The notes under the pieces were generated by a model, which was not told the DNA's origin, made no database searches, and saw only the letters and a program-made list of their open reading frames with translations. Shown here piece after piece: positions 10,195-46,854 of a stretch of DNA of 64,000 bases (its first letter is position 1; each line of letters begins with the position of its first letter). The position numbers were made by a program, and so were the translations under genes. Source of the DNA: a virus; the IMG/VR virus record IMGVR_UViG_2878893965_000005, positions 694-64,693 of that record. The stretch is one strand, 5' to 3'.

Positions 10195-10251
10195 GATGGC
10201 ATCCTCTATGGTCAGTTTTATAAACTCACCACGTGAGGTTCCAAACTCATA

Positions 10252-10331
10252 GGTGGTGAGACGTACAGGGTTGGAACTACCGGCGACCATAGGAACCGGC
10301 CAGCCTTGCGGCTGCCCTGCACGCCCCACCA
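10252..10331 (-). ncRNA. C4/CI-type antisense RNA (Ash-associated) 1
   Basis: Closing stem, GCAA-tetraloop hairpin and second hairpin; its CUAUGGUC and GUUCCAA segments complement sites both upstream (10389-10412) and downstream (10206-10244). Confidence 0.7.
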
Positions 10332-10522
10332 TAATGCGAATGTGGCCGTGCTTAACGCATAAAAAAACCGCAAAGGCGCGGTTATGCGCTATGGTCGTCA
10401 ACGGGGTTCCAATCCCGGCACCCGTTTTATGAGGTGCCTGGGAACTATAACGCCACCCATTTTCTTTCGCAAGCATTGCATCCATCATCTTTCTCACCTT
10501 CGTTAAACCGTCAACGAACTTT

Positions 10523-10653
10523 GTGGTGCGGTGCCTGGTGCCTCCAGGTGACGTTAACCAGTTAACAGTTAGCGCCGACTACAAAACACCCACAACCAAC
10601 ACGAGGTTCTTCTTAACTGAGTCGCGTGCGCATAGCCGCATTCACCGCACTAC
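10523..10653 (-). ncRNA. Multi-stem RNA scaffold, early-operon copy (dicF-dicB intergenic type)
   Basis: GUAGUGCGGUG..CACCGCACCAC closing stem, AAU-GCG/CGC hairpin, CCUGG-AGGCA-CCAGG hairpin; same fold as the four copies at 24.8-26.5 kb. Confidence 0.65.
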
Positions 10654-10665
10654 AAAATTCGTTTT

Positions 10666-10730
10666 AAAAAGGACGGTATCAGCAAGGGAAATGCTGATAC
10701 CGCCAACACAACACACAGCAATGTCACGGT
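10666..10730 (-). ncRNA. DicF-like sRNA ending in an intrinsic terminator
   Basis: UUGGCGGUAUCAG start of hairpin as in DicF (from memory), 13-bp stem plus U5; preceded by a long RNase III-like stem (about 10740-10830). Confidence 0.5.
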
Positions 10731-19224: not shown

Positions 19225-19550
19225 TGGCGCTTGTTGCTTTTTAGAATGGGTTCCATGTCATATACTTTATTATCAATTATAGTTTTGATGGAATACCCTT
19301 TGCCCATATCTTTACTAAGAACTACTACCATAGGATAGTAAGCATATCCAAAATCAAGTGAACTACATCTTAGTACCATGTCATTTTCCAGTACTATAGG
19401 TTTTCTGTAGTCGCAACCATCGAAGTTACCGTCAATTTTGCTAACAGCAATTACTGTGTAACCGATTAAATTTTTGTAATCGTAAATATTTTCACCCATT
19501 GCGAAGGTATGAAATGATGCTAATAACAAAAGATATATTATTTTTTTCAC
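19221..19550 (-). CDS. Secreted hypothetical protein (moron)
   Basis: Sec-type signal peptide; two Cys; low GC. Confidence 0.7.
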   Translation of the reverse strand: MKKIIYLLLLASFHTFAMGENIYDYKNLIGYTVIAVSKIDGNFDGCDYRKPIVLENDMVLRCSSLDFGYAYYPMVVVLSKDMGKGYSIKTIIDNKVYDMEPILKSNKRH

Positions 19551-19954
19551 AATAAAATTCCTTTAAGCAGGCCATTAAAATGGCCTGAGTTAAATCTAAT
19601 AACAAGTTCCACCCTTATGATGTGAACCTGTACCGCCATGTGGGTGCGTACCTTTAGGGCAAGCAATTGCATTCACTGACATTGCCCCAAATGCCAGAAT
19701 CAGGATCATCGCTGCGATTTTTTTCATCAACATTCACCTTAGATTATTGCGGTAAAATTGCCGCAAAAATAGCCTATAGCCTTCAGCTCGACTTTTTCAA
19801 TAGCAAGTTACTTTACAATACCAATGAAGCATGTATTATTCCCAGACGAGGCGTCGAAACCTCTTCTCAACGCGGCCAAAACCAACCCCGATAGTGTTGG
19901 ATTTTTTATGCCTGTCATTCTGTGGGCGCATTACGCGAACACACCCCGATTAAT

Positions 19955-20034
19955 GTCGGGAGGGCGACGAATACAACACCCGAAAGGGAAATAAGTCCGC
20001 GGTCTCGTTGAGCCGTTTCGAACCTCCCGGCACC
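19955..20034 (+). ncRNA. IsrK/C4-like antisense RNA 2
   Basis: GUCGGGAGG/CCUCCCGGC closing stem, CCC-GAAA-GGG arm, second arm; complements sites at 19854-19872 and 20051-20068; promoter TTTACA-16-TATTAT at 19812-19839. Confidence 0.7.
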
Positions 20035-20074
20035 ACTCCGATAGTGGTACTTCGAAAAAATCAACGAGGTCATC

Positions 20075-20653
20075 ATGACTAGCCCTATCTCTACAGTTAT
20101 CCCTGAGATAACCATTCACGACAACCGTCCTGTAACCACTTCAGTTTCAGTCGCAAATTTCTTTGGTAAACAGCATAAACACGTTCTGGAGAAAATTCGG
20201 AGCCTTGATTGTTCTCCTGCGTTTACGACGGCCAACTTTTCGACCGTCGCAATAACCACTCAAGCTGGCTTTGACGAACGCGAAACAGAAGCCTACGAAA
20301 TGACCAAAGACGGCTTTGTCTTTCTGGTGATGGGCTTTACGGGAAAAAAAGCGGCTGCGTTTAAGGAAGCCTACATTGCGGAGTTTAACCGCATGGAGGA
20401 AGAGATCCGCCAGCAGAAAAATGACATGATTTTCGGTGACTCCCGCACGCTGGTTATCCACTTGGACGAGCACGGCAATATAAAATCCACGGAAAAGGTT
20501 CCGGATGACTCCGTGGTGTGTACCTTCCAGAGTTTCAAATTCTGGGTTGAACGTAACGGCTGGCTGGTGATCCGCCGTGATGACCTGACGGAGTTATTTA
20601 ACGAAACTCTCAGGAAAATCGGGCTTCCGGCAACACTGACAAATCCGCAGTAG
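20075..20653 (+). CDS. Rha-family regulator (antirepressor-like) 2
   Basis: Same Rha motifs as 9652-10194 and the same C-terminal domain (GDSRT.V.H.DE.GN...WLVI.RDD). Confidence 0.85.
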   Translation: MTSPISTVIPEITIHDNRPVTTSVSVANFFGKQHKHVLEKIRSLDCSPAFTTANFSTVAITTQAGFDERETEAYEMTKDGFVFLVMGFTGKKAAAFKEAYIAEFNRMEEEIRQQKNDMIFGDSRTLVIHLDEHGNIKSTEKVPDDSVVCTFQSFKFWVERNGWLVIRRDDLTELFNETLRKIGLPATLTNPQ

Positions 20654-20716
20654 TTAGCTTATAATCCCTGTGCCAGCCTGAACAACTGGCAACCTGTCGC
20701 GCCACCGGAGAACCCG

Positions 20717-21319
20717 ATGGCGCAATTACAACTGGTCAAGCACACCTCATCCGGGGTACTGCTCCCGGCTACGCCGGAGAGTGGCGAATTTCTGCATTCC
20801 GTGAAAATTGGCGAGTGGATACACGCTGATTTTAAACGTGTACGCAATTACGCCTTCCACAAACGTTTTTTCAAACTGCTACAGCTTGGCTTCGACTGCT
20901 GGACACCTGCTGGTGGCTCATTATCACCGGATGAACTTCAACTGGTAAATCGCTTCGTCGGGTATCTCGTTGAGATGTCCGGTCAACGTTATGGCGAAGT
21001 ATTATCCGCTGCTGCTGATGAGTTTCTGCTGATGGAAGGGCAGTTACGTACAAGGGACGTTGCATTGCTCAAGTCATTTGAACCTTATCGCGCCTGGGTG
21101 ACTGTCCAGGCTGGTTACTATGATGAGGTTATCCTTCCTGATAATACCCGCCGCAGAACTCCAAAATCTATTGCATTCGCCAGGATGGATAAAGATACGT
21201 TCCGGCAGTTGTATAAGGACGTCTTCAACGTCTTATGGAATTTCATTCTGCGCCACAAATTCAGATCACAGCAGGAAGCAGAAAACGTGGCGATGCAGCT
21301 TCTGGAGTTTGCGGGATGA
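20717..21319 (+). CDS. DUF1367-family (NinB-like) protein
   Basis: RNY.FH.RFF.LL..GF and PKSI.FA.MD...F..LY motifs. Confidence 0.75.
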   Translation: MAQLQLVKHTSSGVLLPATPESGEFLHSVKIGEWIHADFKRVRNYAFHKRFFKLLQLGFDCWTPAGGSLSPDELQLVNRFVGYLVEMSGQRYGEVLSAAADEFLLMEGQLRTRDVALLKSFEPYRAWVTVQAGYYDEVILPDNTRRRTPKSIAFARMDKDTFRQLYKDVFNVLWNFILRHKFRSQQEAENVAMQLLEFAG

Positions 21320-21612
21320 AGACGATTTATCGCAGCAAAAATTGGTTGGACGCAGTGGGACAGATAGAACAATACGTCTTGTGTGGCAGGTGGGGGACGC
21401 AGGTCGCCCATCGCAATGAATTAAAGGGCATGGGACTGAAAACCGATGATTGCGCCACCGCTGCGCTTTGCCCGGAATGTCATTACGAAATTGACAACGG
21501 CTGCCACCTGGAAAAAGAAGAACGCAGGCGGCTAATGAATAAAGCGATAGTGCTTACAGTGATTGAGCTTGCCCGCCGTGGGCTGATAATTCCGGCGGTG
21601 ATTAAGGGGTGA
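21316..21612 (+). CDS. DUF968/YbcO-like small Zn-binding protein
   Basis: YRS..WL.AV, AH, A.LC.ECH..ID.G; coupled to neighbours. Confidence 0.65.
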
Positions 21613-22004
21613 TAATGCGCGATATTCAGGAGGTTCTGGAACGATGGGGCGCATGGGCCGCCAATAACCGTGAGGATGTTGTATGGTCATCAATTGCCGC
21701 TGGCTTTAAGGGGCTGATACCAAACAAAGTAAAATCCCGTCCACAATGCAGCGATGATGACGCGATGGTGATTAGCGGATGTATGGCGCGGCTGAAAAAA
21801 AACAGTGAAGACCAGCATGACTTACTGGTTGATTACTACGTATTGGGAAAGACGTTCATAGCACTGGCCAGACAACATTCATGCTCGGATGGCACTATAG
21901 GTAAGCGATTACAGGGGGCCGAGGGTGTTGTCGAGGGTATGTTGATGGCACTGGACGTTAAGCTGGAAATGGACAGGTATGTACAAAGGGAGAACAGTTT
22001 ATGA
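21609..22004 (+). CDS. Q: Late antiterminator Q
   Basis: [14 protein letters not shown]...[17 protein letters not shown]. Confidence 0.85.
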
Positions 22005-22145
22005 AGGTTTTTACGACATTGCTCACGGGCCTTTCGTGGCCTCTTTTGCGTTGATGGTTATTCACATATTGAACTGGATTCGGGATGCAAAAAACTGCAT
22101 TCGGAAACGCTCATCAGGTGGAAGATCATTTAGCTATTTTCGAAT

Positions 22146-22236
22146 TGTATTAGTGTGATTACCAAGGGATACTGACGGTTTTCACTGGCAGCACTCAATC
22201 AAATCTGACAGTCGGCTTTGAGCGAGAAACGGAAGT
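22146..22236 (-). repeat. Moron-border element copy B
   Basis: Minus strand CTTCCGTTTCTCGCTCAAAGCCGACTGTCAGATT...CTAATACA. Confidence 0.55.
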
Positions 22237-22266
22237 TGGCTACCGAGAATTTGGTGATTCAGATCG

Positions 22267-23304
22267 TCATCGAACATTCTGTGATATCGCCGTCTTTAGA
22301 TCACTAGTAAGCATCTCTGCCTGTTTTTCCAAAGCTTCTAACATAAAATCTTTTTTATCTTGTACAGTAACTAGTAAATAGAATGGTTCACTATTTGTAC
22401 AGGTCAAGCGTGATATTCTAAAGTCATCACGGTGAGGTATTAATGCACGATAATTTCCTTCAGCGATAAACATAAAGCGAGCTTTAGAATTTTCGCTGAG
22501 CCACATATACTTATTATTGCAAAAGAAAGTATCGCGCGTGTCATACTCCATGGCAAATCCGAATCCGAATTTAATGATGGAAAACGTCTGTATACTAAAT
22601 GCAATATATGAAATATAACCAATAAAAAATAATGGAGCGAAAACTGACATTGAATAGCTAATGTCATCAGATGGTGTTGCTTTTACTTTTTTTATTTTTG
22701 GGGCTATGAATATTAAATAAGCAATGCAAATAAAGTAAATGGTATAATAGAATATAAAAATAAAAAGCAATGCTGAGACTGCCGTCATGAGTTTATTGAT
22801 TGTGGTATCAAAAGGAATATCAAATATATTGGAGATTAGCGAGCGTGCAAGATAATATGAAATTAATGATACGATTAGCCATGAGTATTTAATTCCTATC
22901 TTTACTTTAGTGGCTATGTTTTTTTCTTTGTTATCGAACGATTGTATGTGAGATGATATAGTGTATATCATACACAATGCCGTCATAAAAACTAATGCAC
23001 TTGGAATGATGGTGTCGATATAATTAATGACTTTAAAGGAAATACATGTTAATAAGAATAGCAATGCCGACAATAATGCCGCATCTTGCGTTTTTTTATA
23101 ATTCTTTCGTAGGCGAACGGCCAGTTGATTGGATGACTTTTTATTCCAATAATTGTGTACAATTAGCCCACTGAGAATAATCATACCCAACCAAATAACA
23201 ATGGGATATAGAGGCGCTCTCTGAGGCATGATGACGAGCACTGCCATATAGAACAATAGAGAATGAGTGATGCCAAGGTTTAATGAAGAGCGTGTTTTTT
23301 TCAT
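22267..23304 (-). CDS. Multi-pass membrane protein with C-terminal soluble domain (moron)
   Basis: About 6-7 hydrophobic helices, very low GC, between Q and pR'. Confidence 0.8.
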   Translation of the reverse strand: MKKTRSSLNLGITHSLLFYMAVLVIMPQRAPLYPIVIWLGMIILSGLIVHNYWNKKSSNQLAVRLRKNYKKTQDAALLSALLFLLTCISFKVINYIDTIIPSALVFMTALCMIYTISSHIQSFDNKEKNIATKVKIGIKYSWLIVSLISYYLARSLISNIFDIPFDTTINKLMTAVSALLFIFIFYYTIYFICIAYLIFIAPKIKKVKATPSDDISYSMSVFAPLFFIGYISYIAFSIQTFSIIKFGFGFAMEYDTRDTFFCNNKYMWLSENSKARFMFIAEGNYRALIPHRDDFRISRLTCTNSEPFYLLVTVQDKKDFMLEALEKQAEMLTSDLKTAISQNVR

Positions 23305-23466
23305 CGATGACCTTTTTAATAATTCGTTATTCTATTAGATGTTAAGTTTTTTATAACAGAAGCTAACGACATTAGGAAGGTGAGTTTATGATTGAAGAAA
23401 AATTATCCACCTGTTTGAAATCTGTTGTGATTCACAGAATTTGGCCATTTGAAAGTACGATTGAAA

Positions 23467-23550
23467 CTTCCGCTTTTGGCACAGACCTGCCTGTCAGATT
23501 AGATTTAGGTTTGTACCATAGCTGTGTCAGGTCAAGTCTGAGCTAATACA
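23467..23550 (+). repeat. Moron-border element copy C
   Basis: CTTCCGCTTTTGGCACAGACCTGCCTGTCAGATTAG...CTGAGCTAATACA. Confidence 0.55.
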
Positions 23551-23821
23551 TTTGAATTAATGCCTTTCGGCAATCAGCGCATAGCCCTTCACCACATACA
23601 CCCGTCGGCACATAAAACAGATCTATTCTCATCGAAGTAAACAAACTGTAAACATACGGAGTCAGACGACTCATACTCATCACCTCCCAGCCGTCGCTGA
23701 TATCGTTATACTCACGCTCACTTAGCCCCAGAGCCATAGCCAGCTTTGTTTTTTTGATACCCAGAAGCCGGGCCTCGCGCTCAAGTCGGGTTATTGCTGG
23801 CAGGTGATAATCATCTTGCAT
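23543..23821 (-). CDS. XRE-like HTH protein 2
   Basis: RL..E..LLGI....LA.ALG...DLFYVPTG; paralog of the upstream gene. Confidence 0.7.
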   Translation of the reverse strand: MQDDYHLPAITRLEREARLLGIKKTKLAMALGLSEREYNDISDGWEVMSMSRLTPYVYSLFTSMRIDLFYVPTGVCGEGLCADCRKALIQMY

Positions 23822-23834
23822 GCGATTTCCTTTA

Positions 23835-24233
23835 TCAGTGATGAGTTGAATGCTTCCCACCATTTGTAGCTTTCATCAGTTTTTCATATACAGGCTCCAT
23901 CAGTTCGCGCATTTCCATCTGCTCATCAATGGGTAAATCAGCAATGGCATAACTAAAGGCACTCAACATTATTTCATAGTTTTCGCCATTGTTTTCACCT
24001 GTCAGTACGTAAAAGAGATCAAAGCCTGCGTTATCGAGAGCTGCCTGCACCTCACCAGACATTTCGTAAACTTTAAAGTCCGGCTTTTCATCAGCAACGA
24101 CATAGTAAAAATATGAGTCCAGTCCTAGTATCTTCGCCATTTCGTCATCGCTGATACCCAGACGTTTCTTCTCCTTGAGGAGACGTTCTGTTGCGGTTAA
24201 ATCCCAGTCACTCTTTGGTGTTTTTGCTGACAT
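23835..24233 (-). CDS. XRE-like HTH protein 1
   Basis: ERL..EKKRLGIS..EMAK.LG...GFDLFYVLTG; GGAGG RBS. Confidence 0.75.
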   Translation of the reverse strand: MSAKTPKSDWDLTATERLLKEKKRLGISDDEMAKILGLDSYFYYVVADEKPDFKVYEMSGEVQAALDNAGFDLFYVLTGENNGENYEIMLSAFSYAIADLPIDEQMEMRELMEPVYEKLMKATNGGKHSTHH

Positions 24234-24341
24234 GGAGGTTCCTTGTTTGGTTTTGGTGGGTATACGTAAGGAACCTACGATCTGTAGGTGGCATTTTTCA
24301 ACTGAAGATTACCTGAGGGGTGAATCTGGCTACAAAAAAAG

Positions 24342-24433
24342 TTTACGTACGTAAAATTATACGTATTCTGTTAAAAGTGGTCAGTTTGACACAACTCCAT
24401 CATCAAAGCCTCGCCGTAACAGGTGGGGTTTTG
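24342..24433 (+). promoter_or_regulatory. Probable pR' late promoter and tR' hairpin
   Basis: TTTACG-16-TATTCT followed by a GC hairpin with U-tract at about 24406-24433. Confidence 0.45.
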
Positions 24434-24548
24434 TCGTTTCAGAGGGCCACAAAATCAAAGTGGGTCACTAAACGATGTTTTTGTTTTGCTTTTAATCTTC
24501 TGCCTGTTGTAAAACAAAAATATTTATAACCATACAAAGGGTGATGCC

Positions 24549-24743
24549 TTGAGAGTAGAACAAAACCACTTCATGGCCGAAGAAATTGGCGATACGGTTA
24601 TCCAGTTACTTGAGAATGGCAAAAGGGTTACGACAGGCAATATCGTTGATTTGCTTGAGCGGAAACGTCATGCGTTGCATGGTAATAAAGCAGATCAGAT
24701 TAGAGAAATTTTGATATTTATCAGAAAAAAATCAGTTATGTGA
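24549..24743 (+). CDS. Small protein resembling AriR/YmgB
   Basis: IGDTVIQLLENGKRVTTGNIVDLL...KADQIREIL aligns by eye with AriR [24 protein letters not shown]...KADVIRKTL. Confidence 0.45.
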   Translation: MRVEQNHFMAEEIGDTVIQLLENGKRVTTGNIVDLLERKRHALHGNKADQIREILIFIRKKSVM

Positions 24744-24781
24744 ACTTGCCATAAATAACCTGGTGATTGTAGGGTTTTGTT

Positions 24782-24879
24782 GTTGCGGTGAATCCCACTA
24801 GGCGTAGGGGTGTAGTTAGGTTTAGCTTCCACTACTGGCTATGCGGAGAAATCCACCGGGAGGCACCCGGCACCGCAAC
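24782..24879 (+). ncRNA. RNA scaffold copy 1
   Basis: GUUGCGGUG/CACCGCAAC stem, CCC/GGG hairpin, CCGGG-AGGCA-CCCGG hairpin; promoter TTGCCA-18-TAGGGT at 24746-24775. Confidence 0.7.
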
Positions 24880-24933
24880 TTTACAATCCAGTCAATCTTG
24901 AAATGTTTGTTTCGACGTCAGTACAGGAAGGCG

Positions 24934-25059
24934 ATGATGTTGAAAAAATGGTGTGTCAGGCTGCTTCTGCTCTCCAGTTTTTTTTGTGGTGTAGTCATAT
25001 ACTGCGTTGTTATCGAGCGTATAGAGCATGAGCTGATTTTTCTGGGGATAGATGATTAA
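24934..25059 (+). CDS. 41-aa single-TM peptide
   Basis: AGGAAGG RBS; MMLKKWCVRLLLLSSFFCGVVIYCVVIERIEHELIFLGIDD. Confidence 0.5.
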   Translation: MMLKKWCVRLLLLSSFFCGVVIYCVVIERIEHELIFLGIDD

Positions 25060-25104
25060 AAAATTTATTGCCAGACTTAATCTGCAAACAGTAGCTTTTC
25101 CGGT

Positions 25105-25223
25105 GTTGTGGTGAATCCAGCTATGCGCATGGGCGTACAGTCAAATTTCTCTGATGAGAAACGTAAACGAGACCGCGGACTTTGTGACTGGTAAGTCCAC
25201 CGGGAGGCACCCGGCACCGCAAC
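25105..25223 (+). ncRNA. RNA scaffold copy 2 (carries anti-IsrK 17-mer)
   Basis: Same stems; promoter TTGCCA-18-TAGCTT at 25068-25097; 25166-25182 is the reverse complement of 19993-20009. Confidence 0.75.
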
Positions 25224-25229
25224 GCTAAT

Positions 25230-25305
25230 CCGCCACTAGCTCAGCAGGATAGAGCAGCAGCCTTCTAAGCTGTTGGTGCGGGTTCGATTCCCGCTGACCG
25301 CTCCA
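25230..25305 (+). pseudogene. Chimeric tRNA-Arg(UCU)/Gly with unpaired acceptor stem
   Basis: D and anticodon arms with UCU are intact; 5' CCGCCAC cannot pair with 3' UGACCGC, which matches the tRNA-Gly 5' end at 25971. Confidence 0.7.
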
Positions 25306-25331
25306 GAACCAGAAATACGGGAATTAAGTAC

Positions 25332-25433
25332 TCAGAAAATAAACAGCCCGTTTATAGCCAGCATCCAGGCGAACCATATACCTCCCAAAACAATAGCCAC
25401 TAACCAGTAGAGTGCTTGTGCCAGTGCGTTCAT
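25332..25433 (-). CDS. 33-aa hydrophobic peptide
   Basis: AGGAGGT RBS; MNALAQALYWLVAIVLGGIWFAWMLAINGLFIF. Confidence 0.6.
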   Translation of the reverse strand: MNALAQALYWLVAIVLGGIWFAWMLAINGLFIF

Positions 25434-25660
25434 CCGGGGACCTCCTGACTGTAAAAAAGTCCCCGGCACCGGGCAGGTGACGGGGAAATGTATTGGAAGC
25501 AACGTTTTGAGTTATGACCCTCACAAGCAATCGCAACTTATGAAGATGTGAAAACGATAATCATTTGCATTAATGAGTGTCAACGGACTAAGAGTAGGGA
25601 TAATTCCACCCTTGCCGGGAGAGGTTGCAAAATACCACCAGCAAACAGTAGTTTTCAGGC

Positions 25661-25783
25661 GTTGCGGTGAATCCAGCTATGCGCATGGGCGGAAGTGGTT
25701 TCAGGATAGTTAATTATCAAGGTAGCGCGAGTCACGGTCGGCAGCCAGCCAACGACTCACCGGGAGGCACCCGGCACCGTAAC
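25661..25783 (+). ncRNA. RNA scaffold copy 3
   Basis: Same stems; promoter TTGCAA-18-TAGTTT at 25625-25654. Confidence 0.7.
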
Positions 25784-25789
25784 ACTATC

Positions 25790-25865
25790 GGCCCTTTAGC
25801 TCAGTGGTCAGAGCAGGCGGCTCATAACCGCTTTGTCGCTGGTTCAAACCCAGCAAGGGCCACCA
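25790..25865 (+). tRNA. tRNA-Ile2/Met (CAU), ileZ-like
   Basis: Complete 76-nt cloverleaf with CCA; resembles Stx-phage ileZ. Confidence 0.85.
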
Positions 25866-25970
25866 GGCAAGTGTAGACTACTGAATAAGTAGCCTACCGA
25901 CGCAATAGTCTTTCCACGCATGACTATAAATATCGTCGCGGTGACGGCAGGGAAAGACCTGCGTTCATAA

Positions 25971-26032
<62 letters not shown>

Positions 26033-26038
26033 AGACAT

Positions 26039-26114
26039 GCTGGTTTAGCTCCAACGGTAGAGCAGTCGCCTTGTAAGCGAATGGGTAGCGGTTCAGATCC
26101 GTTAACCAGCACCA
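26039..26114 (+). tRNA. tRNA-Thr(UGU)
   Basis: 76-nt cloverleaf with CCA; T loop UUCAGAU is non-canonical at position 58. Confidence 0.75.
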
Positions 26115-26372
26115 TATCCCCCTGTGTAGCTCCGCTGGTCACGCGGCGGCGGCCCATCGTTAAAGGGCAAATTTCAGGCAGAAAAAAACCGCCACAGGGA
26201 TGGCGGGCAGTAAATACTGAACTTGAAAAACAAGGGATACGTCAACACTTGGAGGTCTACACACTCAGCAGAACTGTGTAGCCATCAACACCTTGCCTGA
26301 TTTCTGTGTTTAAGTTAAACAGATAAATCCTAAACTAGTAAACCATGTAAATTATAATGTTATTGTAATGAT

Positions 26373-26501
26373 GTTGCGGTGAATCCCGTTAGCGCGGGGC
26401 AAACTGATCATCTGTGTGTATTGACAATAGTTGCAGCAGACATGAACACGGGTCATGGCAGATCAACCAAAGGCTCACCGGGTAGCGACCGGCACCGCGA
26501 C
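26373..26501 (+). ncRNA. RNA scaffold copy 4
   Basis: Same stems with variant CCGG-GUAGCGA-CCGG; extended -10 TGt-TATTGT at 26358-26366; terminator 20 nt downstream. Confidence 0.7.
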
Positions 26502-26521
26502 ACTACAATACCAGGGAAAAC

Positions 26522-26548
26522 AAAGGCTACTTCGGTAGCCTTTTTCTT
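26522..26548 (+). terminator. Intrinsic terminator
   Basis: AAAGGCTAC-TTCG-GTAGCCTTT plus U-tract. Confidence 0.8.
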
Positions 26549-26645
26549 TGGGCAAAAAAATACCCGGTCAGAGAACCGGGCTGGAATGACGAAATAGCGT
26601 CTAAATGAGTATTTACGAGTTTTGCCTCATAGGGTTAAGGCACGT

Positions 26646-27011
26646 AAACGGTAAGCATTTCAGTTTGTGCGGGTCAACAGGGCTGCGCTAATGCGTGATT
26701 TAATTATATGTAATGGACTTGGGTACATCCTCGGCTATGTGCGCGGATGCGATTAACGCCGACCCGCATCAAGGGTTATGCAGTCTGTAGAAAATCAACG
26801 CTGCAGCGATAGCCATAAAACAGATAAATATTGCGAGTTTTTCGAAGGTGCTCATTCTGGCTTCTCCCGAAAAAAAAGCCCGGAATAACAGGCCGGGCGA
26901 ATCACACAATGTTTAACATCAAATTGGAGGTTGCTCACTCTTCAGGATATGCGCAACGAAGAAACGATAAGCATTTCAGTTTGTACGGGTCAACAGGGCT
27001 GCGCTAATGCG
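26646..27011 (+). repeat. 50-bp direct repeat pair (26646-26695 and 26962-27011)
   Basis: 48/50 identical; the second copy ends in a terminator hairpin plus U-tract. Confidence 0.85.
26769..26855 (-). CDS. 28-aa hydrophobic peptide
   Basis: GGAGA RBS; MSTFEKLAIFICFMAIAAALIFYRLHNP. Confidence 0.55.
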   Translation of the reverse strand: MSTFEKLAIFICFMAIAAALIFYRLHNP

Positions 27012-27382: not shown

Positions 27383-27721
27383 ATGAATAACGACCCACAT
27401 AGCTGGACGGACTGGTGGGTGATGGTGAAAAGCTGGATTAATGGCGACATTCCCCTGGACAGCCTTTTAATGACGGCGGTTATTGCAACACTGCGTGTTC
27501 TGTATACGGGAAGAAGCTGGCGACGTCTGTTGCTTGAAGTGCCACTGTGCTGTCTGCTGGCCGTTGCCGCGTTCTCCATGATTAAACCTATTCCCGTTTC
27601 CTGGTTATCTGAAGACTGGCGGGTAGGTATTGGCGCAGCCATAGGGCTTATCGGCGTTGAGCATATCCGGGCACTGGGTGTGTTTGTGACGAAGAAAATA
27701 GCAGGAAGGACAGGACAATGA
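27383..27721 (+). CDS. Holin (lambda-type, multi-TM)
   Basis: Hydrophobic helices, basic C-terminus, coupled to endolysin. Confidence 0.8.
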   Translation: MNNDPHSWTDWWVMVKSWINGDIPLDSLLMTAVIATLRVLYTGRSWRRLLLEVPLCCLLAVAAFSMIKPIPVSWLSEDWRVGIGAAIGLIGVEHIRALGVFVTKKIAGRTGQ

Positions 27722-46511: not shown

Positions 46512-46590
46512 TTACCCACATCTGAATCAGTAACACTGGCTGCGGGTGCTTTGGGCTGTCTGCCTGAAGCATTAGTGAATGGCAGGCAAG

Positions 46591-46650
46591 AAAAAGCCCC
46601 GAAGGTAATTAATGTTTATTAACCACCTACGAGGCCTATCCTATGCTTGA
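46591..46650 (-). ncRNA. sok: Sok-like antisense RNA
   Basis: Hairpin ending GGGGCUUUUU antisense to the mok/hok leader. Confidence 0.65.
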
Positions 46651-46701
46651 CAACATGAAGATAGCCTCTTACAGGCCGAAAGGTCAAGGAGAAACGAGGC
46701 T

Positions 46702-46854
46702 ATGAAGCCACAAAAACTGGCGCTGATAGCGCTAATCGTTGTCAGTATCACGCTTCTCGGAGTGTTGTTACTGAATAACAAAACCCTCTGCGACGTTAGC
46801 TTCCGAAGCGGCGGAACGGAGGTTGTGGCTCATATGGCTTACGAATCCAGGTAA
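46702..46854 (+). CDS. hok: Hok/Gef type I toxin (50 aa)
   Basis: MKPQKLALIALIVVSITLLGVLLLNNKTLCDVSFRSGGTEVVAHMAYESR; 5' GGGUGCUUUG pairs with 3' CAAAGCACCC. Confidence 0.9.
   Translation: MKPQKLALIALIVVSITLLGVLLLNNKTLCDVSFRSGGTEVVAHMAYESR

Follow-up and report, generated by a model that had tools for sequence, protein, structure and literature searches.

Scaffold 2 and its complement in the C4-like RNA

The 64,000-nucleotide (nt) stretch analyzed here, referred to as the window, corresponds to positions 694 to 64,693 of the virus record IMGVR_UViG_2878893965_000005 in IMG/VR. Between the gene of the late antiterminator Q (21609-22004; Pfam PF06530, E 1e-52) and the holin gene (27383-27721), it carries an array (24758-26553) of four tandem RNA scaffolds with shared conserved ends and differing centers, interleaved with tRNA genes. 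This study deals with the second of them, scaffold 2 (25105-25223), a putative small RNA (sRNA) of the STnc100/PasD type, and with its complementarity to a C4-type antisense RNA encoded in front of the regulatory gene rha2. Coordinates are those of the window, and all features lie on the plus strand unless marked (-).

The antisense RNA in question, C4-type antisense RNA 2 in its allele a (19955-20039; the C4-like RNA in the following), matched the Rfam family sRNA-Xcc1 (RF02221) over its full length with 72.3 bits versus a cut-off of 53, and did not score as a member of the C4 family (RF01695). It has the architecture of C4: two inner hairpins are enclosed by an outer stem, which is followed by an ACCAC tail. 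For both of its recognition elements, the loop b' CUCGUUGAG (20004-20012) and the single-stranded a' GUUUCGAA (20015-20022), complementary sites exist 5' of the RNA as well as across the ribosome-binding site (RBS) of rha2. The upstream operator a1/b1 (TCGAAAC ... CTCAACG) was located at 19854-19872. The natural operator a2/b2 (TTCGAAA ... TCAACGAGG) spans 20051-20069 and covers the rha2 Shine-Dalgarno sequence, with TCAACGAGG at 20061-20069 and the rha2 start codon ATG at 20075.

The C4-like RNA lies 36 nt 5' of rha2 (20075-20653), which encodes a Rha-domain regulatory protein (Pfam PF09669, Phage_pRha, E 4e-27) and is followed in the same direction by a DUF1367 gene, a small open reading frame (ORF) of 98 amino acids (aa), and Q. 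The RNA and these genes stand head to tail behind a single promoter-like site (window 19812-22004). This site, TTTACA and TATTAT separated by 16 nt (10/12 matches; 19812-19839), is located 5' of the C4-like/rha2 unit and is kept in all four alleles described below. No terminator-like site was found in the unit before 22023, and given this head-to-tail arrangement the C4-like RNA may gate Q in addition to rha2. The first-pass annotation had labeled the target IsrK/C4-like. The C4-like half of the label stands, within the sRNA-Xcc1 family, and the IsrK half does not: the true IsrK and C4 pair of the window is found elsewhere, at 10249-10437 (-), with IsrK itself at 10361-10437 (-). Because IsrK is a separate locus, the target is named C4-like here.

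Scaffold 2 reached 46.7 bits with the STnc100 model (RF02076; cut-off 47, E 2.8e-9), aligning to model positions 31-147 only. Its assignment to the family, of which it is a member or nearly so, draws on score, fold, and covariation, and its elements are P1, P2, a variable arm, P3, and P4. Specifically, RNAalifold was applied to 30 diverse scaffolds, scaffold 2 included, and the conserved P1-P4 fold was supported by double changes in 10 of 25 pairs. Compensatory changes were carried by 8-12 sequences for each of three P3 pairs and by 5-11 for the outer P1 pairs. Furthermore, a conserved RCGCGG motif is located just 5' of P3, and its CGC is predicted to pair with GCG after P2, closing the variable arm. 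In the window, this closing helix joins 25132-25134 with 25175-25177; one of its pairs showed six double changes in the 30-scaffold alignment.

The word AACGAGACCGCGGACTT at 25166-25182, referred to as the guide, extends from the variable arm of scaffold 2 through the closing helix into the 5' arm of P3. Its reverse complement, AAGTCCGCGGTCTCGTT, stands without a mismatch at 19993-20009 in the C4-like RNA. This 17-nt target covers the junction of the two inner hairpins plus six loop bases: according to the Rfam alignment, hairpin 1 contributes its 3' side (19993-19998), hairpin 2 its 5' strand (19999-20003), and the loop CUCGUUGA its first six bases (20004-20009). Within the window, guide and target were the sole two matches of the 17-mer with up to 2 mismatches allowed, and no match was obtained in 100 shuffles of the sequence. 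The 5.58-Mb genome likewise contained the guide and the target alone. The duplex of the two RNAs has no contiguous extension past 17 nt on either side, not even by 1 base. Most of what the first-pass annotation had said of this pair is confirmed. It had described an exact antisense 17-mer whose target spans the arm junction and the recognition loop and whose guide imitates the word AACGAG at the rha2 RBS; the pair is unique in window and genome, the sRNA-Xcc1 alignment places the target as described, and AACGAG recurs in the rha2 Shine-Dalgarno region.

A second antisense word, GAAACG (25158-25163), was found 2 bases 5' of the guide, partly inside a small hairpin of the variable arm. It complements CGUUUC at 20014-20019, which is part of the second recognition element a'. 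Scaffold 2 reads GAAACG-UA-AACGAGACCGCGGACUU, and the reverse complement of the C4-like RNA reads GAAACG-GCUC-AACGAGACCGCGGACUU. The words GAAACG, UA, and AACGAG of scaffold 2 follow each other in operator-like order and spacing, and 11 more bases then continue into the stems of the C4-like RNA. As both operator words are present in the same order, scaffold 2 copies the bipartite operator.

Nine of the 17 guide bases are set by the scaffold's own conserved helices, namely CGC, the 3' half of the helix closing the variable arm, and GGACUU, the 5' arm of P3. GGACUU pairs with the 3' arm of that hairpin, AAGUCC (25193-25198). Since the target opens with the same six bases, it would compete with this arm for GGACUU. 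The 8 free bases of the guide, AACGAGAC, lie in the variable arm and are predicted to be unpaired. The chance figure of ~0.003 given earlier is arithmetically correct (350 x 128,000 / 4^17). Since 9/17 bases are constrained by the scaffold, the 8 free bases at a fixed register provide the proper test, which refines this figure: in 200,000 composition-preserving shuffles of the arm, the complement of AACGAGAC to the allele-defining loop at fixed register was reproduced 3 times (~1.5e-5).

Pairing energies were predicted by cofolding, the net gain being the energy (kcal/mol) after unfolding both partners; the model is crude and was the same for the natural operators. Scaffold 2 with the C4-like RNA gave a predicted net gain of -7.7 kcal/mol. 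The corresponding values were -0.1 +/- 0.4 kcal/mol for 200 shuffled arms (best, -3.2), 0.0 kcal/mol for scaffolds 1, 3, and 4, and -1.7 and -2.4 kcal/mol for the two natural operator regions. The mimic in scaffold 2 is thus predicted to out-compete the natural operator sites thermodynamically.

To place this pair among others of its kind, 76 unique scaffolds were compared with 21 unique C4-like RNAs (1,596 pairs). Only scaffold 2 stood out, with complements of 17, 14, and 11 nt. The longest complementary run in the remaining pairs was 10, and same-sense and reversed controls reached at most 10 and 9 nt, respectively. In the window, scaffolds 1, 3, and 4 and a fifth scaffold-like copy at 10500-10680 showed no specific complement to either of the two C4-type RNAs, and the 10500-10680 copy showed none to the neighboring C4 or IsrK RNAs. 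The suggestion that the array forms a panel of guides against C4/IsrK-like RNAs is unsupported in this sample, as the run lengths match those of the controls except for scaffold 2. A class-level rule, by which every scaffold would guide some C4- or IsrK-like RNA, was rejected on the same equality of run lengths.

Scaffold centers searched against ~7 Mb (the genome that carries the window plus the loci) returned only unmasked scaffold copies and chance-level 13-18-mers. In genome collections, the 17-mer had 78 matches in 596 Gb versus ~70 expected by chance; three of the 78 were C4-like RNAs (Brenneria, Pectobacterium, and Entomohabitans) and none was a guide. A flank-anchored pattern for scaffold 2 with an altered guide retrieved only three identical viral contigs, and nothing from metagenomes. 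Scaffold 2 had no match in Escherichia coli complete genomes, and matches in the phage collection were confined to the tRNAs and one relative of scaffold 4, from Fels-1.

Alleles and array in related prophages

Relatives were gathered as ~20 prophage loci that carry scaffold 2 or are closely related. They were taken from IMG/VR, from Logan assemblies via the identical Q protein, and from NCBI assemblies via the adjacent 132-aa protein; loci are given as L numbers and RNA-labeled runs as X numbers. Four alleles of the C4-like RNA were found, and in every one a changed loop b' is accompanied by corresponding changes in b1 upstream and in b2 at the RBS. Allele a has the loop CUCGUUGAG and the b2 site TCAACGAGG, allele b CUCACUGAG and TCAGTGAGG, allele c AUCUUUUGG and CCGAAAGAGG, and allele d CUGUUUGG and CCAAACGAGG. 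In allele d, a1, a', and a2 are changed too. The series is represented by window 19854-20069, L228:9738-10016, L230:9738-10016, and L244:4192-4470, on backgrounds with ~89% overall identity that hardly differ between alleles a, b, and c. The series resembles diversification of the heteroimmunity type, here within a lambdoid Rha/Q module, and the allele changes themselves look like imported patches.

Because the operator covers the RBS and co-varies with the loop, as in immI of P1/P7, repression is expected, which argues for a C4-like RNA that represses rha2 by masking its RBS. The first-pass annotation had also considered an activator of the IsrK type, with scaffold 2 locking lysogeny; this branch is inapplicable, given that an RBS-overlapping, co-varying operator points to C4-type repression. 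The predicted pairing of scaffold 2 is graded by allele (a, -7.7; b, -3.1; c, -0.8 kcal/mol).

The scaffold 2 unit of 344 bp is absent in the allele-d loci L244, L245, and L254 and in the allele-c locus L259. This presence/absence unit corresponds to window 24880-25223; where it is absent (e.g., L244:7700-8000), scaffold 1 joins the tRNA-like gene directly, and the polymorphism fits recombination between the identical P4/P1 ends of neighboring scaffolds. The matched pair of guide and allele a occurs in at least two prophage configurations, with a 345-aa moron (window and L255) and without it (L241 and L243). The slot between Q and the array holds this 345-aa protein, which has no Pfam match (22267-23304 (-)), in the window and L255; it is alternatively occupied by a 525-aa HEPN_LA2681 protein in L251 (7422-8999), L253, L256, and L257, or by nothing (e.g., L241). 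The RNA-labeled runs with the locus (X1-X4, window 19500-27000) represent a strain that has allele c and, between 22225 and 23463, an insert other than that of the window. In X1 and X3, the allele-c changes were found at all three places and the guide was unaltered. The contigs of these runs reach 17-114 kb and resemble genomic DNA, for which reason the runs are uninformative on transcription.

As to the rest of the array, scaffold 1 (24782-24879) passed the STnc100 cut-off with 50.7 bits. Scaffold 3 (25661-25783; 48.4 bits), which ends 6 nt 5' of tRNA-Met, and scaffold 4 (26373-26501; 89.6 bits) are of the STnc100 type as well. The only terminator in the array was found after scaffold 4 (26522-26543). 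Scaffold 2 ends 6 nt 5' of a tRNA-like gene (25237-25294) with an Arg UCU anticodon arm, which matched Rfam over model positions 8-63 only. This gene was not called by ARAGORN, and its 5' and 3' acceptor strands are non-complementary; the same broken gene is common to all relatives.

STnc100 and PasD have been described as one prophage sRNA family, the members of which differ in their seeds and lie beside Q/lysis genes (10.64898/2026.05.13.724894). PasD1 and PasD2 are abundant and Hfq-dependent, and contact many RNAs, including core and accessory mRNAs (PMC8550237). PasD2 was the top CsrA-associated partner (10.64898/2026.08.12.744399), and STnc100 is expressed in Shiga toxin-producing E. coli (STEC; PMC12370729). 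A function of the family is not established in the literature cited.

Some further features of the array and its surroundings were observed. Scaffolds 1-3 carry CCCGGCACC (e.g., 25209-25217), and scaffold 4 carries CCGGCACC. The 9-mer is the same as the 3' end of the C4-like RNA (20028-20036) and complements GGUGCCGGG in the first hairpins of IsrK (10361-10437 (-)), over 8 nt for scaffold 4. Similarly, CCGGGAGG in P4 of scaffolds 1-3 complements the 3' strand of the outer stem in the C4-like RNA. The fifth scaffold-like RNA, in the early region at 10500-10680 (-), shows compensatory changes in P4 (CCUGG/CCAGG) and starts with GGUGAAUG. Between scaffolds 2 and 3, a hydrophobic ORF of 33 codons (25332-25433 (-)) is preceded by a GGAGG ribosome site, and a similar second start region (25960-25979) lies between the tRNA-Met and tRNA-Thr genes; both may specify small membrane peptides. 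Elsewhere in the window, a full-length match to the sok antitoxin RNA (46544-46704; 91 bits) points to a hok/sok-type module.

The decoy reading and its rivals

We prefer to read scaffold 2 as an allele-specific operator-mimic decoy, directed at allele a and carried as a cassette, and assign this reading a probability of about 0.4. It is preferred because the free part of the arm reproduces precisely the two words by which allele a is defined, in the right order and at an accessible position, in a class of RNAs that act by pairing. A dedicated partnership between scaffold 2 and the C4-like RNA is unproven.

With both RNAs present, the loop CUCGUU would nucleate on the free AACGAG of scaffold 2. 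The duplex would then spread to 17 bp at the expense of two existing structures, hairpin 2 in the C4-like RNA and the P3 arm in the scaffold. Titration or destruction of the C4-like RNA would follow and release rha2 translation, with probable read-through to DUF1367 and Q. A late, Q-dependent burst of scaffold 2 would in this way create a positive feedback that commits the phage to lysis, a model that rests on the position of the array between Q and the lysis genes. In other hosts, the decoy could hit co-resident or incoming phages of allele a. As the 344-bp cassette travels regardless of the resident allele, the decoy would have to be seen as an accessory part of the switch. A more far-reaching version, in which scaffold 2 is an anti-immunity decoy that serves as a Q-driven lock in allele-a phages and acts across phages elsewhere, the loop alleles being in part an escape from it, appears doubtful to us.

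Several results weigh against the decoy reading. The guide is letter-for-letter identical in every copy of scaffold 2 found and does not co-vary with its target. The comparative check on guide-target covariation put forward in the first-pass annotation therefore failed: the cis operators track the loop across four alleles, whereas the guide is invariant. Scaffold 2 is combined with allele a in the window, L241, L243, and L255 (17-nt complement), with allele b in L228, L229 with L098, and L252 (14 nt left), and with allele c in L230, L242, L251, L253, L257, and runs X1/X3 (11 nt left). Two loci, L258 and L260, have scaffold 2 but neither an Xcc1-type RNA nor rha2, leaving no complement at all. 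Allele a, in turn, did not always come with the guide: ten viral contigs, and the genomes of three species in other genera, had the allele alone. There was no other outstanding scaffold-C4 pair in the 76 x 21 comparisons or within the window, and 9 of the 17 guide bases belong to scaffold 2's own helices. Furthermore, a promoter scan 5' of the scaffolds gave no qualifying site, and no Rho-independent terminator or U tail, the module through which the family binds Hfq, was found between scaffold 2 and the tRNA-like gene; the latter finding, together with the broken state of that gene, makes 3'-end formation of scaffold 2 uncertain.

The invariance of the guide carries no selection signal, because identity among the arrays of all relatives amounts to 99.4-99.8% across 630 nt and the cassette is young. 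To judge from the loci collected, mismatched combinations of guide and allele are shown to be viable and common; the matched pair is not thereby shown to be inert. Of the sponge reading proposed earlier, the non-chance, bipartite, and partly single-stranded operator mimic in a family of base-pairing sRNAs is retained, but the expected guide-target covariation is not.

The same data could also be explained by a fossil, a possibility we rate as unlikely and yet take seriously. Here, the variable arm would once have taken up an inverted piece of the C4-like RNA gene, or an old operator, by an event at the DNA level and would have no present role. In reverse complement, the gene of the C4-like RNA gives GAAACG-GCTC-AACGAGACCGCGGACTT, so that GAAACG-TA-AACGAGACCGCGGACTT in scaffold 2 resembles a slightly decayed inverted copy. 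The variable arms of the family are swapped wholesale. The cassette, which comes and goes as a single 344-bp unit, is tied to no particular allele and also occurs where there is none, and at an array identity of 99.4-99.8% the complement may persist through the youth of the cassette alone. However, the parts kept are exactly the two allele-defining words, with the order and strand suited to pairing, at an accessible position, and in a base-pairing family. In addition, neither a capture mechanism nor an intermediate was seen, and the 17-mer occurred in the collections only in guide and target contexts.

It is improbable, by our estimate, that scaffold 2 is a working sRNA selected for other targets, such as host or phage mRNAs, with the pairing to the C4-like RNA as a side reaction. 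The many core and accessory mRNAs contacted by its PasD/STnc100 relatives (PMC8550237), the retention of the guide in phages with non-cognate alleles or without a C4-like RNA, and the family-conserved RCGCGG motif within the guide word are all consistent with it; yet an operator-like complement of 17+6 nt far exceeds the requirement for a seed, and no other site of at least 17 nt exists in the genome. Still less probable is the reverse direction, in which the C4-like RNA would use scaffold 2 as a third operator to act on processing, stability, or read-through of the scaffold/tRNA/late transcript. C4-type RNAs do bind more than one site (a1/b1 and a2/b2), and which partner is the regulator is not deducible from sequence alone. 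Unlike the two cis operators, though, the site in scaffold 2 does not co-vary with the loop, and no plus-strand coding gene with an RBS to mask lies directly downstream. Coincidence is hardly credible, even with the help of a palindromic CCGCGG core and a shared AAGUCC. CGCGG is a conserved motif of the scaffold family, CCGCGG is self-reverse-complementary, GGACUU is fixed by pairing with the AAGUCC present in both RNAs, and chance recurrences of a 17-mer are to be expected when the search is very large, as the 78 matches in 596 Gb versus ~70 expected illustrate. Against this stand the 8 free bases matching at a fixed register (1.5e-5) with a 6-mer two bases away, and the lack of anything else above 10 nt across the 1,596 scaffold x C4 pairs. 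Chance was rejected on the split between free and constrained bases and on the all-against-all controls.

Comparison with known systems

In P1-like prophages and many lambdoid ones, the specificity of antirepressor control is determined by C4-type antisense RNAs, and few prophage sRNAs of enteric bacteria are as abundant as those of the STnc100/PasD family. To our knowledge, no c4 decoy is known elsewhere. If the decoy reading is true, scaffold 2 would represent the first case of a sponge acting on a phage immunity RNA and would add a third RNA layer, of RNA acting against RNA, to the lysis-lysogeny switch. It would also be the first phage-internal function for the STnc100/PasD family and would open a route for interference between co-resident prophages. 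Whatever the outcome, the four alleles with their triple covariation document the C4 mechanism in lambdoid Rha/Q modules.

The system closest to the target is c4 of the icd-ant (immI) system of P1/P7, which is a structured RNA of ~80 nt with two recognition elements, loop alleles that set specificity, and sites both upstream and over the RBS of an antirepressor-type gene. The target differs in that it belongs to sRNA-Xcc1 (RF02221) instead of C4 (RF01695) and precedes a Rha-domain gene, followed by Q. With regard to the 3' end of scaffold 2, a parallel exists in the tRNA-precursor-derived 3'ETS-leuZ, which is said to act as a sponge of RyhB and RybB (a report attributed to Lalaouna et al. 2015). 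As 6 nt separate each of scaffolds 2 and 3 from position 1 of the tRNA that follows, their 3' ends could be generated by RNase P in a comparable manner. 3'ETS-leuZ is the 3' spacer of a host tRNA operon, whereas scaffold 2 would be a structured 5' leader, presumably processed, in front of a defective-looking tRNA.

A decoy directed at a phage's own immunity RNA is not described in the reviewed literature (PMC12197685; 10.64898/2026.05.13.724894), and none against c4 is described in PMC12197685. IsrK of Gifsy-1 (Hershko-Shalev et al. 2016, reviewed in PMC12197685) is likewise a prophage sRNA beside a Rha-type gene that feeds into an antiterminator. It activates translation, whereas the target described here is a separate RNA of C4 architecture with an operator over the RBS, from which repression is expected. 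Scaffold 2 shares its fold, conserved ends, variable center, and location between Q and the lysis genes with STnc100 (RF02076), PasD1, and PasD2 (10.64898/2026.05.13.724894; PMC8550237). Those members have their own terminator and are Hfq-dependent, whereas scaffold 2 lacks a terminator and lies directly before a tRNA-like gene. Moreover, no described member of the family is reported to target a phage antisense RNA, and here four tandem copies are combined with tRNAs.

The closest functional counterparts are AgvB and AsxR, phage-encoded target-mimic anti-sRNAs of E. coli O157 (Tree et al. 2014, reviewed in PMC12197685). Like scaffold 2, they are sRNAs from the late region of lambdoid prophages; AgvB mimics the mRNA target of GcvB, and AsxR pairs into FnrS. 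They are directed at core sRNAs of the host and belong to another scaffold family, whereas scaffold 2 would be directed at the phage's own C4-type RNA.

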